Both the position numbers and the translations under genes were made by a program. Positions 21,303-52,854 of a DNA stretch of 64,000 nt are shown here, in pieces (within the stretch, counting starts at the first letter, position 1; each line of letters starts with the position of its first letter). The stretch is from NCBI RefSeq assembly GCF_024502345.1, contig NZ_JALDNN010000001.1. One strand, written 5' to 3'. Under the pieces are notes generated by a model, which was not told where the DNA came from, made no database searches, and saw nothing but the letters and a program-made list of their open reading frames with translations. This stretch comes from Escherichia coli. Its GTDB lineage: Bacteria > Pseudomonadota > Gammaproteobacteria > Enterobacterales > Enterobacteriaceae.

Positions 21303-22556
21303 ATGTTAAAGCGTGAAATGAACATTGCCGATTATGATGCCGAACTGTGGCAGGCTATGGAGCAGGAAAAAGTACGTCAGGAAGAGCACATCGAACTGAT
21401 CGCCTCCGAAAACTACACCAGCCCGCGCGTAATGCAGGCGCAGGGTTCTCAGCTGACCAACAAATATGCTGAAGGTTATCCGGGCAAACGCTACTACGGC
21501 GGTTGCGAGTATGTTGATATCGTTGAACAACTGGCGATCGATCGTGCGAAAGAACTGTTCGGCGCTGACTACGCTAACGTCCAGCCGCACTCCGGCTCCC
21601 AGGCTAACTTTGCGGTCTACACCGCGCTGCTGGAACCAGGTGATACCGTTCTGGGTATGAACCTGGCGCATGGCGGTCACCTGACTCACGGTTCTCCGGT
21701 TAACTTCTCCGGTAAACTGTACAACATCGTTCCTTACGGTATCGATGCTACCGGTCATATCGACTACGCCGATCTGGAAAAACAAGCCAAAGAACACAAG
21801 CCGAAAATGATTATCGGTGGTTTCTCTGCATATTCCGGCGTGGTTGACTGGGCGAAAATGCGTGAAATCGCTGACAGCATCGGTGCTTACCTGTTCGTTG
21901 ATATGGCGCACGTTGCGGGCCTGGTTGCTGCTGGCGTCTACCCGAACCCGGTTCCTCATGCTCACGTTGTTACTACCACCACTCACAAAACCCTGGCGGG
22001 TCCGCGCGGCGGCCTGATCCTGGCGAAAGGTGGTAGCGAAGAGCTGTACAAAAAACTGAACTCTGCCGTTTTCCCTGGTGGTCAGGGCGGTCCGTTGATG
22101 CACGTAATCGCCGGTAAAGCGGTTGCTCTGAAAGAAGCGATGGAGCCTGAGTTCAAAACTTACCAGCAGCAGGTCGCGAAAAACGCTAAAGCGATGGTAG
22201 AAGTGTTCCTCGAGCGCGGCTACAAAGTGGTTTCCGGCGGCACTGATAACCACCTGTTCCTGGTTGATCTGGTTGATAAAAACCTGACCGGTAAAGAAGC
22301 AGACGCCGCTCTGGGCCGTGCTAACATCACCGTCAACAAAAACAGCGTACCGAACGATCCGAAGAGCCCGTTTGTGACCTCCGGTATTCGCGTGGGTACT
22401 CCGGCGATTACGCGTCGCGGCTTCAAAGAAGCAGAAGCGAAAGAACTGGCTGGCTGGATGTGTGACGTGCTGGACAGCATCAATGATGAAGCCGTTATCG
22501 AGCGCATCAAAGGTAAAGTTCTCGACATCTGCGCACGTTTCCCGGTTTACGCATAA
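21303..22556 (+). CDS. glyA: Serine hydroxymethyltransferase
   Basis: Start set at ATG 21303 ([16 protein letters not shown], 417 aa); PLP-lysine motif region [14 protein letters not shown]. Confidence 0.96.
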
Positions 22557-22595
22557 GCGAAACGGTGATTTGCTGTCAATGTGCTCGTTGTTCAT

Positions 22596-22694
22596 GCCGG
22601 ATGCGGCGTGAACGCCTTATCCGGCCTACAAAACTTTGCAAATTCAATATATTGCAATATCCGTGTAGGCCTGATAAGCGTAGCGCATCAGGCA
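22596..22694. repeat. REP doublet (BIME-like) downstream of glyA
   Basis: gccggatgcggcgtgaacgccttatccggcctaca (22596-22630) and gtaggcctgataagcgtagcgcatcaggca (22665-22694), palindromic REP units. Confidence 0.7.
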
Positions 22695-22714
22695 ATCTTA
22701 GGTATGTGATCATC

Positions 22715-22740
22715 AAGGCTTCCTTCGGGAAGCCTTTCTA
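22715..22740 (+). terminator. Hairpin downstream of REP doublet (possible glyA terminator)
   Basis: aaggcttcc-ttcg-ggaagcctt perfect stem-loop followed by tctacgtt. Confidence 0.35.
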
Positions 22741-22753
22741 CGTTATTGCGCCA

Positions 22754-27722: not shown

Positions 27723-27731
27723 CGGCAGTGT
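27723..27731. repeat. Target-site duplication, left copy (CGGCAGTGT)
   Basis: Identical 9-mer immediately flanks both IS ends. Confidence 0.9.
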
Positions 27732-28788
27732 GGCTTTGTTGAATAAATCGAACTTTTGCTGAGTTGAAGGATCAGATCACGTATCTTCCCGACAACGCAG
27801 ACCGTTCCGTGGCAAAGCAAAAGTTCAAAATCACCAACTGGCCCACCTACAATAAAGCCCTCATCAACCGTGGCTCCATAACTTTCTGGCTGGATGATGA
27901 AGCTATTCAGGCCTGGTATGAGTCAGCAACACCTTCTTCACGAGGCAGACCTCAGCGCTATTCTGACCTTGCCATCACGACTGTGCTGGTCATTAAACGC
28001 GTATTCAGGCTGACCCTGCGCGCTGCGCAGGGCTTTATTGATTCCATTTTTTCTCTGATGAACGTTCCGCTACGCTGCCCGGATTACAGCTGTGTCAGCA
28101 GGCGGGCAAAGTCGGTTAATGTCAGTTTCAAAACGCCCACCCGGGGTGAAATCGCACACCTGGTAATTGATTCCACCGGGCTGAAGGTCTTCGGTGAAGG
28201 CGAGTGGAAAGTCAAAAAGCATGGCCAGGAACGCCGCCGTATCTGGCGTAAGCTGCATCTCGCCGTTGACAGTAAAACACATGAAATCATCTGCGCTGAC
28301 CTGTCGCTGAACAACGTTACGGACTCAGAGGCCTTCCCCGGGTTAATCCGGCAAACCCACCGGAAAATCAGGTCAGCCGCCGCCGATGGCGCTTACGATA
28401 CCCGGCTATGTCACGATGAACTGCGGCGTAAGAAAATCAGCGCGCTTATCCCTCCCCGAAAAGGTGCGGGTTACTGGCCCGGTGAATATGCAGACCGTAA
28501 CCGTGCAGTGGCTAATCAGCGAATGACCGGGAGTAATGCGCGGTGGAAATGGACAACAGATTACAACCGTCGCTCGATAGCGGAAACGGCGATGTACCGG
28601 GTAAAACAGCTGTTCGGGGGTTCACTGACACTGCGTGACTACGATGGTCAGGTTGCAGAGGCTATGGCCCTGGTACGAGCGCTGAACAAAATGACGAAAG
28701 CAGGTATGCCTGAAAGCGTGCGTATTGCCTGAAAACACAACCCGCTACGGGGGAGACTTACCCGAAATCTGATTTATTCAACAAAGCC
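27732..28788 (+). mobile_element. IS903-group insertion sequence (IS5 family), 1057 bp
   Basis: 18-bp perfect terminal inverted repeats ggctttgttgaataaatc at 27732-27749 and reverse-complemented at 28771-28788; single DDE transposase ORF; flanked by 9-bp direct repeats. Confidence 0.9.
27809..28732 (+). CDS. IS903-type transposase
   Basis: Frame open from 27764; GTG at 27809 gives 307 aa, matching the remembered IS903 transposase length; true start codon uncertain. Confidence 0.8.
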   Translation: MAKQKFKITNWPTYNKALINRGSITFWLDDEAIQAWYESATPSSRGRPQRYSDLAITTVLVIKRVFRLTLRAAQGFIDSIFSLMNVPLRCPDYSCVSRRAKSVNVSFKTPTRGEIAHLVIDSTGLKVFGEGEWKVKKHGQERRRIWRKLHLAVDSKTHEIICADLSLNNVTDSEAFPGLIRQTHRKIRSAAADGAYDTRLCHDELRRKKISALIPPRKGAGYWPGEYADRNRAVANQRMTGSNARWKWTTDYNRRSIAETAMYRVKQLFGGSLTLRDYDGQVAEAMALVRALNKMTKAGMPESVRIA

Positions 28789-28797
28789 CGGCAGTGT
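28789..28797. repeat. Target-site duplication, right copy (CGGCAGTGT)
   Basis: Identical to 27723-27731. Confidence 0.9.
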
Positions 28798-34069: not shown

Positions 34070-34101
34070 TGCCGGATAAGGCGTTCACGCCGCATCCGGC
34101 A
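34070..34101. repeat. REP element
   Basis: tgccggataaggcgttcacgccgcatccggca palindromic unit between convergent yphB and yphA. Confidence 0.6.
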
Positions 34102-45300: not shown

Positions 45301-45383
45301 TGCCTGATGCGACGCGTAACGCGTCTTATCAGGCCTACAGTGCACAGAGTCCCAGGGCGGATATGGCGTTCACGCCGCATCCG
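45301..45383. repeat. REP elements downstream of trmJ
   Basis: tgcctgatgcgacgcgtaacgcgtcttatcaggcctac and ggcggatatggcgttcacgccgcatccg palindromic units. Confidence 0.6.
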
Positions 45384-45449
45384 ACAACAGGTACAAACAC
45401 CACGATAAAAAAATGGCACTGAAGGTTAAATACCCGACTAAATCAGTCA

Positions 45450-46051: not shown

Positions 46052-46291
46052 TTTAACCGTCCTGTTTCGTGTTGCATCTGCGTTGACTGCACATACTCAC
46101 TCCGGTCACTTACTTATGTAAGCTCCCGGAGATTCGTAAGTTTGTCAACTTGCTGAAACCCGAAACAGTTAGGTTAAAGATAACAAGATATTAGAATCAG
46201 GCCGGGGCGTATCGCGCTCCGTAAACACGGTCGTACATCCAGCCGGTAGCCTGGTTCCTTGCATTGAGTGATGTACGGAGTTTATAGAGCA

Positions 46292-51464: not shown

Positions 51465-52748
51465 ATGACAGAAGCGATGAAGATTACCCTTTCTACCCAA
51501 CCTGCCGACGCGCGCTGGGGAGAAAAAGCAACTTACAGCATTAATAATGACGGCATTACCCTGCATTTGAACGGGGCAGACGATCTAGGGCTGATCCAGC
51601 GTGCGGCGCGCAAGATTGACGGTCTGGGCATCAAGCATGTTCAGTTAAGCGGTGAAGGCTGGGATGCGGATCGCTGCTGGGCATTCTGGCAAGGTTACAA
51701 AGCCCCGAAAGGCACGCGTAAAGTGGAGTGGCCGGATCTGGACGATGCCCAGCGCCAGGAACTGGATAACCGCCTGATGATCATCGACTGGGTGCGTGAC
51801 ACCATCAACGCACCGGCAGAAGAATTGGGACCATCGCAACTGGCACAGCGTGCTGTTGATCTGATCAGCAACGTCGCGGGCGATCGTGTGACTTATCGGA
51901 TCACCAAAGGCGAAGATCTGCGTGAGCAAGGTTATATGGGGCTGCACACCGTCGGACGCGGTTCAGAACGTTCTCCGGTATTGCTGGCGCTGGATTACAA
52001 CCCAACTGGCGATAAAGAAGCGCCAGTGTACGCGTGCCTGGTAGGTAAAGGTATCACTTTTGACTCCGGCGGCTACAGCATCAAACAGACTGCGTTTATG
52101 GACTCGATGAAGTCGGACATGGGCGGCGCGGCAACGGTTACCGGGGCGCTGGCATTTGCCATTACGCGCGGACTGAACAAGCGCGTGAAGCTGTTCCTCT
52201 GCTGTGCGGATAACCTGATTAGCGGCAATGCGTTCAAGCTGGGCGATATCATCACCTATCGCAACGGTAAAAAAGTTGAAGTGATGAACACTGATGCCGA
52301 AGGGCGTCTGGTGCTTGCCGATGGTCTGATTGATGCCAGTGCGCAGAAACCGGAAATGATCATTGATGCGGCGACCCTCACCGGGGCGGCGAAAACTGCG
52401 CTGGGTAATGATTATCACGCGCTGTTCAGTTTTGACGATGCGCTTGCCGGTCGTTTGCTGGCGAGTGCCTCACAAGAGAACGAACCATTCTGGCGTCTGC
52501 CGCTGGCGGAATTCCACCGCAGCCAGCTGCCGTCTAACTTTGCCGAACTGAACAATACCGGAAGCGCGGCGTATCCGGCAGGCGCGAGCACGGCGGCGGG
52601 CTTCCTGTCGCACTTTGTTGAGAACTATCAGCAAGGCTGGCTGCATATCGACTGCTCGGCGACTTACCGTAAAGCGCCGGTTGAACAGTGGTCTGCGGGC
52701 GCTACGGGACTTGGTGTGCGCACGATAGCTAATCTGTTAACGGCGTAA
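51465..52748 (+). CDS. pepB: Peptidase B (M17 aminopeptidase)
   Basis: Start set at ATG 51465 ([10 protein letters not shown], 427 aa); M17 signature NTDAEGRL. Confidence 0.9.
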
Positions 52749-52756
52749 ACTAATAT

Positions 52757-52854
<98 letters not shown>

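Follow-up and report, generated by a model that had tools for sequence, protein, structure and literature searches.

REPs are mRNA-stabilizing barriers to 3′ exonucleases. In BIME-2, Y and Z2 units are joined by short linkers, iterated in tandem and bind gyrase, and REPINs are thought to be mobilized by Y1 transposases of the RAYT (TnpA-REP) kind; y, z1 and z2 units are all substrates for in vitro cleavage by the TnpA-REP of Escherichia coli. For BIME-1, we know of no demonstration of mobility in vivo. A BIME-1 element has a Y and a Z1 palindromic unit, inverted with respect to each other, on either side of a long conserved L linker that has been reported to carry an IHF site. It occurs as a single pair per locus, outside genes and 3′-terminal in its transcription unit. 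Its size has been given as around 140 bp (PMC1187871), and the same paper reports presence or absence of the whole element with reference to Bachellier 1997. RIB (reiterative IHF BIME; Boccard & Prentki 1993) and RIP (repetitive IHF-binding palindromic element; Oppenheim et al. 1993) are equivalent names for the same element.

Here we analysed a window of 64,000 nucleotides from an E. coli contig (NZ_JALDNN010000001.1), in which a first-pass annotation had singled out two near-identical REP doublets, one after glyA and one after pepB, in direct orientation and about 30 kb apart. We find that both doublets are ordinary, already catalogued members of BIME-1 (RIP/RIB). The best explanation, in which we have high confidence, is that they are independent members that resemble one another by way of the family consensus, with no copying from one to the other and no demonstrable functional link between the two sites.

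Two doublets in unrelated surroundings

The position and arrangement given by the first-pass annotation were borne out. Both doublets are on the plus strand with the Y unit ahead of the Z1 unit and are therefore direct repeats, and their starts are 30,161 bp apart (Table 1). They are extragenic, each on the 3′ side of a stop codon, that of glyA at 22554–22556 and that of pepB at 52746–52748. Global alignment of the 101 and 100 nt gives about 90 identical positions and two or three single-base indels; the identity of the cores in the family alignment described below is 89%. Stretches of uninterrupted identity are of 16, 22 and 31 bp, the longest of which (22664–22694 on the glyA side) contains the counterpart of the pepB Z1 unit, and the two Y units differ at one base. 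The 100-nt flanks on either side, compared without gaps, match at 29/100 and 23/100 positions and are thus unrelated, so the similarity begins and ends at the doublet.

Taken alone, the spacer is 71% identical between the two copies: its centre (TGCAAATTCAA.A.ATTGC) is conserved, and its edges have diverged. The first-pass annotation had called the spacers similar, and had named identity substantially below about 80% outside the palindromes as a reason to give up its view. Pairwise alignment upholds the similarity for the centre but not for the spacer as a whole. A 32-nt pattern that spans linker sequence and GTAGGCC occurs twice in the window and in none of 100 dinucleotide-preserving shuffles; chance or a low-complexity artefact as the source of the likeness is ruled out by these shuffles and the flank comparison.

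Both doublets are present at the equivalent loci of K-12 MG1655, in the glyA–yphH and pepB–sseB spacers, where the K-12 RefSeq annotation has no REP or repeat features. Neither doublet is covered by Rfam, the matches of which in the window are limited to ryfA, rncO, GlmY, iscRS and ohsC, and no promoter or terminator near either doublet was picked up by strict scans.

Table 1 Positions of the REP units, linkers and associated motifs in the window
Feature	Position	Strand	Description
glyA doublet	22594–22694	+	101 nt; given as 22596–22694 in the first-pass annotation
Left outer motif ('A'-type flank), glyA BIME-1	22570–22594	+	20/25 match to family consensus TTGCTGACAAAGTGCGCTTTGTTC
Y-type REP, glyA copy	22595–22629	+	35/35 against Y consensus; 3′ end CTAC
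L linker, glyA copy	22630–22664	+	Conserved core common to all sampled family members
IHF-consensus-like 13-mer ATTCAATATATTG, glyA linker	22642–22654		8/9 specified positions of WATCAANNNNTTR
Z1-type REP, glyA copy, inverted	22665–22694	−	30/30 against Z1 consensus; GTAG at 22665–22668 on the plus strand
Right outer motif ('B'-type flank), glyA copy, diverged	22695–22716	+	13/22 against consensus AATGTTGCGTTTGTCATCAGTCT
GC-rich hairpin AAGGCTTCC-TTCG-GGAAGCCTT with T-rich tail	22715–22741	+	Stem-loop 22715–22736; abuts the glyA element
Solitary Y-type REP	34071–34101	−	31/31 against Y positions 1–31; no CTAC tail; inverted relative to the doublets
BIME-2-type pair between trmJ and iscR	45301–45386		Z2 at 45301–45338 (+); partial Y at 45358–45386 (−)
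pepB doublet	52755–52854	+	100 nt; given as 52757–52854 in the first-pass annotation
Y-type REP, pepB copy	52756–52790	+	34/35 against Y consensus; hairpin −21.3 kcal/mol
L linker, pepB copy	52791–52824	+	71% identical to the glyA linker
IHF-consensus-like 13-mer ATTCAACAAATTG, pepB linker	52802–52814		8/9 specified positions of WATCAANNNNTTR
Z1-type REP, pepB copy	52825–52854	−	30/30 against Z1 consensus; 100% identical to the glyA Z1

At glyA the doublet is the core of a complete unit of around 147 bp (about 22570–22716) that occupies the stretch between the glyA stop codon and a terminator-type hairpin, with the stem of the Y unit starting 39 nt past the stop. The Y and Z1 hairpins have predicted energies of −21.3 kcal/mol (z = −5.4) and −12.9 kcal/mol, respectively. 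The adjoining hairpin at 22715–22736 (−14.8 kcal/mol, z = −5.1), which is kept in alleles with and without the element, is likely to be the terminator of glyA and, on the other strand, that of yphH; it was missed by the strict scan because its tail has only 4 T in 8 nt.

At pepB, a core-only unit fills most of the pepB–sseB spacer and its Y stem starts 8 nt past the stop codon. The outer motifs are absent (7/29 and 5/22 matches to the family consensus) and, as they are present in most sampled copies, the pepB copy is an incomplete member of BIME-1. The sequence CGGCGTAAAC occurs twice within 52740–52780, at a distance of 24 nt, with the first copy spanning the pepB stop codon and the second lying in the loop of the Y unit. 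In a rare variant (strains Ch1 and GPEC1258; L006, 260–420), the 24 nt between these direct repeats are deleted, which removes half of the Y unit and leaves the pepB stop codon inside the remnant.

Membership of the BIME-1 family

REP units in the window were located by blastn-short against Y, Z1 and Z2 consensus units taken to represent the three types. The description in PMC3333891 is consistent with them. Both doublets share the described architecture of BIME-1: one Y and one Z1 unit, inverted; a long conserved L linker, here of 34–35 nt and with an IHF-like site; exactly two units at each site and no tandem array; a location outside genes, 3′-terminal in a transcription unit; and a core of around 100 bp, extended at glyA to around 147 bp by the outer motifs. 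Presence/absence polymorphism, another property of BIME-1, is found at the glyA site. The differences are that the pepB copy has no recognizable outer motifs and is nearly fixed, and that the IHF consensus is matched at 8/9 positions; we found no others. The similar spacer of the first-pass annotation is thus the conserved L linker of BIME-1 and, for the purposes of annotation, the spacers at glyA and pepB should be read as such.

Other described systems are less close. Like the REPINs of Bertels & Rainey, the doublets comprise two inverted REPs and a spacer, are able to form a single long hairpin and occur as dispersed copies, but they differ in having a long conserved linker with a predicted protein-binding site, together with outer motifs. 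With BIME-2, an example of which is present in the window at 45301–45386, they share the Y unit and the general REP architecture, whereas they contain Z1 and not Z2, a long L linker and not a short S linker, and are not iterated in tandem. Complete BIME-1 copies also resemble miniature elements of the MITE kind (Correia, ERIC/IRU) in their inverted outer motifs (13/16 positions) and in the direct target duplications found at many loci. In contrast to the short duplications of fixed length that are produced by DDE transposases, those of BIME-1 are variable (17–37 bp) and centred on a hairpin, and neither copy in the window is flanked by one.

The family is large. Of 5,426 complete E. coli genomes, 5,425 had matches to the 101-bp doublet used as a query, with a median of at least 40 sites in each, and the linker alone matched a median of 10 places (range of 4–25; E ≤ 1). 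A linker pattern retrieved 25 further copies from genomes of Escherichia and Pseudocitrobacter, all of which contain the core TGCAAATTCAA.A.ATTGC, and a search with a 20-mer found at least 120 metagenome contigs with the conserved linker core. Most copies carry the left motif TTGCTGACAAAGTGCGCTTTGTTC and the right motif AATGTTGCGTTTGTCATCAGTCT, which are imperfect inverted repeats of each other, so that the complete repeated unit in the family alignment is around 150 bp in length and longer than the doublet, in agreement with the published 140 bp.

Against this background the pair is unremarkable. In an alignment of 27 copies, the glyA and pepB cores are 89% identical, where the family median is 90% and 57% of all pairs show at least this similarity; their linkers are 71% identical compared with a median of 80%, a figure inflated by the retrieval of the sample with patterns from the two window copies, a bias that does not favour the conclusion that the pair is not special. 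For each window copy, numerous members of the family at other loci, and in other genera, are closer to it than its counterpart in the window. The first-pass annotation had treated the likeness, spacer included, as particular to these two sites; it is instead that of the family consensus, at or below the family median, and dozens of equally good partners exist in each E. coli genome. As posed, the finding of two matching doublets is of very little import, as these are textbook repeats at loci that are occupied in K-12 too.

Near-consensus BIME-1 units with intact outer motifs and flank duplications were found at multiple loci (L007–L018 and L027–L029) in Pseudocitrobacter faecalis, Pseudocitrobacter vendiensis and one Pseudocitrobacter metagenome-assembled genome, which suggests a recent expansion of BIME-1 outside Escherichia. 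A 261-bp contig in an assembly of Methylobacterium frigidaeris (NZ_BPQJ01000238.1) holds an Escherichia-type BIME-1 that adjoins a Z2 REP and has a core 99% identical to the glyA copy; this contig is almost certainly a contaminant of the assembly.

Presence and absence in E. coli

The glyA copy was found in 1,932 of the 5,426 complete E. coli genomes (36%) and is absent from 64%. In the empty alleles (L003–L005), compared with 22568–22714 of the window, the 14 nt TAATCTGTTGAAAA stand in place of 147 nt, a net difference of 133 nt; the missing stretch includes both outer motifs, and the terminator hairpin is intact. This is the presence/absence behaviour that is typical of BIME-1. The pepB copy, found in 5,424 of the 5,426 genomes (99.96%), is nearly fixed and is also present in Escherichia whittamii (L022). 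The two natural lengths of the glyA 3′ untranslated region, in 36% and 64% of genomes, respectively, provide a natural test of the effect of BIME-1 on an abundant mRNA.

The 14-nt stretch that the empty glyA allele has instead of the element (given at 22730–22741) and the end of pepB (TAATCTGTTAA, 52730–52741) have TAATCTGTT in common, located where the left outer motif would be. A coincidence, a remnant of the motif and a preference for certain targets are all conceivable reasons; as regards a remnant, the similarity of TAATCTGTTGAAAA and TAATCTGTTAA to the left outer motif is weak, at about 10/18 positions.

Relationship between the two sites

We weighed independent membership of BIME-1 against three readings in which the two sites are connected. 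In one of them, the doublets are a recombination pair, and unequal exchange by RecA recurrently deletes or duplicates the 30-kb block from yphH to pepB and so matters for variation. The doublets are direct, around 100 bp in length and around 89% identical with a perfect run of 31 bp, REP elements have been reported to facilitate duplications of 18–49 kb on F′128 (PMC8763031), and BIMEs are listed among the sequences involved in genomic rearrangements (PMC1187871); nonetheless, we consider this very unlikely. We built one chimeric 800-bp query per predicted junction: for a deletion, the glyA 3′ end was joined through a hybrid doublet to the sseB side, and for a tandem duplication, the pepB 3′ end was joined in the same way to the yphH side. 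A junction was called where a single place covered at least 80% of the query. Neither junction was detected in the complete E. coli genomes (0/5,426 for each), in which every best match covered one half only (56%). The glyA partner is missing from 64% of these genomes, and each genome has dozens of equivalent partners elsewhere. Divergence of around 10% with short perfect runs also makes for a poor RecA substrate. The interval between the doublets holds pepB, iscX–fdx–hscAB–iscAUSR, trmJ, suhB, yfhR, csiE, the hca genes and yphA–H; with iscRSUA–hscBA–fdx–iscX, trmJ and suhB among these genes, deletion of the block should be strongly counter-selected. A duplication would be transient. The first-pass proposal that the doublets serve RecA-mediated deletion or duplication of a yph–hca–isc block therefore retains mechanistic precedent only: recombination between glyA and pepB is mechanistically plausible but finds no support in the 5,426 genomes. 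Occasional unequal exchange between the doublets may take place, at no better odds than for dozens of other copies of the family, and has left no trace in sequenced genomes.

A recent origin of one doublet from the other, by local transposition or gene conversion, is hardly credible. Identical Z1 units and Y units one base apart would be expected of such a copy, but the overall identity is that of the family median, the linkers are less similar than those of most family pairs, and the outer motifs present at glyA are absent at pepB. The nearest relative of the pepB copy is the orthologous copy of E. whittamii (96%), and those of the glyA copy are orthologous copies at the glyA locus (94–95%) and a copy with different flanks (99%); population frequencies of 36% and 99.96% also argue against a donor and a recipient. 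Segmental duplication, or any direct donor–recipient relation, was rejected on the basis of the unrelated flanks and the median identity. We give equally little credence to a model in which paired, IHF-bound sites bracket the isc–hca–yph block as a chromosomal loop or supercoiling domain. Both copies have the L linker, for which IHF binding has been reported in BIME-1, and they have the same orientation at the ends of the 30-kb block; however, 64% of genomes lack the glyA copy with the block otherwise unchanged, comparable elements are scattered through the genome, no sequence feature couples the two sites, and our literature search found no IHF binding data for either site.

Folding and likely function

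Compared with shuffled sequences, far more stable folds are predicted for the 3′ region of glyA (−75.4 kcal/mol, z = −6.6) and for the pepB–sseB spacer (−57.1 kcal/mol, z = −5.2). In the minimum-free-energy structures of both sites, Y pairs with Z1 and the linker is held in the loop, and the units can also form their own hairpins. These predicted folds fit the mRNA-stabilizing role of REPs, and experimental work on the 3′ structure of glyA has reportedly been carried out by Plamann and Stauffer. We propose that both elements are transcribed as part of the mRNA of the upstream gene, in which the REP hairpins would block 3′-to-5′ exonucleases.

The same elements may act in other ways. REPs are reported to depress translation when they are less than 16 nt from a stop codon (PMC12306157). 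With a Y stem that starts 8 nt after the stop, the pepB copy lies inside this zone, compared with 39 nt for the glyA copy, and may be near enough to interfere with terminating ribosomes. As duplex DNA, the L linker would offer a site for IHF. The exact IHF consensus was absent from both linkers in our scan; the IHF-like 13-mers match 8/9 specified positions. We found no locus-specific IHF binding at glyA or pepB in the literature, and neither gene features in Prieto 2012 or Kasho 2021. Copies would arise and be lost through a putative mobility of the family that is linked to the RAYT/TnpA-REP transposase; no RAYT gene is present within the window.

Duplicated terminator hairpins beside complete copies

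In 15 of the 37 sampled copies that have both outer motifs, sequence particular to the locus and containing a GC-rich hairpin is directly duplicated on the two sides of the element; loci with such flanks include L008–L010, L015, L017, L025, L028, L034, L044, L048, L053, L058 and L124. By-eye inspection puts the length of the duplications at 17–37 bp. Alignment of left with right flanks gave scores of 12–24 for cognate pairs, with a maximum of 25.5 in a copy that lacks the right outer motif; for non-cognate pairs, the mean is 5.4 and the 99.9th percentile 11. At 23 of 33 distinct loci, the left boundary of the element coincides with the end of a strong hairpin (≤−8 kcal/mol in 30 nt), compared with 10% of shuffles, and the left flank ends in CT or TT in 19 of the 33.

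Filled and empty alleles could be compared at two loci. Between lpdA and yacH, the lpdA terminator hairpin AAGCGGCTAACCACGCCGCTT is found once in empty alleles and on both sides of the element in filled alleles. Between fbaA and mscS, empty alleles have one copy of a 37-bp stretch that includes the fbaA terminator and filled alleles, found in 3,719 genomes, have two; the extra copy differs by changes that preserve the stem. (The allele pairs are L034 versus L156 and L157, and L048 versus L153 and L154.) The katE–chbG spacer was considered as a third pair and rejected, as the alternative allele is a replacement and offers no clean empty site. The two copies in the window are without a target duplication; the glyA copy merely abuts a terminator on its right.

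These patterns raise the possibility, which we put forward tentatively and hold to be rather less than even, that complete BIME-1 is a MITE-like mobile element that inserts directly 3′ of GC-rich, terminator-type hairpins, usually after C-T or T-T, and duplicates 17–37 bp of its target. Such an element would come to be bracketed by duplicate terminator stem-loops, and the direct flank repeats would allow later precise excision, which would explain the presence/absence polymorphism. The glyA copy would then be an insertion beside the glyA terminator from which the left duplicate has since been lost. A target of a hairpin followed by CT would, moreover, mimic the REP substrate of the RAYT transposase.

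We found no description of a hairpin target rule in the accessible literature, although the older primary papers on BIMEs may contain one. If it is new, the link to duplicated hairpins could matter more than the doublets themselves: filled and empty alleles in which a long duplication is centred on a hairpin would be a concrete and testable signature of how REPs and BIMEs move in vivo. This family-level association with duplicated terminator hairpins is the single lead worth following.

Other REPs and insertions in the window

The census of the window gave seven REP units: the two doublets, a solitary Y unit and a pair consisting of a Z2 and a partial Y unit. The first-pass annotation had listed single units at 34070–34101 and 45301–45383. 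The former is indeed a solitary Y unit, which takes part in repeat families D1/D2 and inverted pairs I1/I2, but the latter comprises a Z2 unit and an inverted partial Y unit (35/38 and 25/26 positions, respectively, against consensus). At this trmJ–iscR locus, K-12 has one extra tandem unit of around 95 bp, to which the window stretch aligns twice, 95 bp apart; this difference is copy-number variation of the kind that is typical of BIME-2.

Two further insertions distinguish the window from K-12. A 1,057-bp insertion sequence at 27732–28788, inside a homologue of yphF, has imperfect terminal inverted repeats of 33 nt (GGCTTTGTTGAATAAATCG...), a 9-bp target duplication (CGGCAGTGT at 27723–27731 and 28789–28797) and a 322-amino-acid open reading frame with DDE_Tnp_1_5 and DDE_Tnp_1 domains; it looks like a member of the IS903 group of the IS5 family. 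The other, of 127 bp (46053–46179), lies directly after the iscR stop codon and just upstream of the Rfam iscRS stability element (46181–46290), and is present in around 489 of the 5,426 E. coli genomes. Its core, cactccggtcacttacttatgtaagctcccggagattc, resembles the ERIC/IRU repeat.
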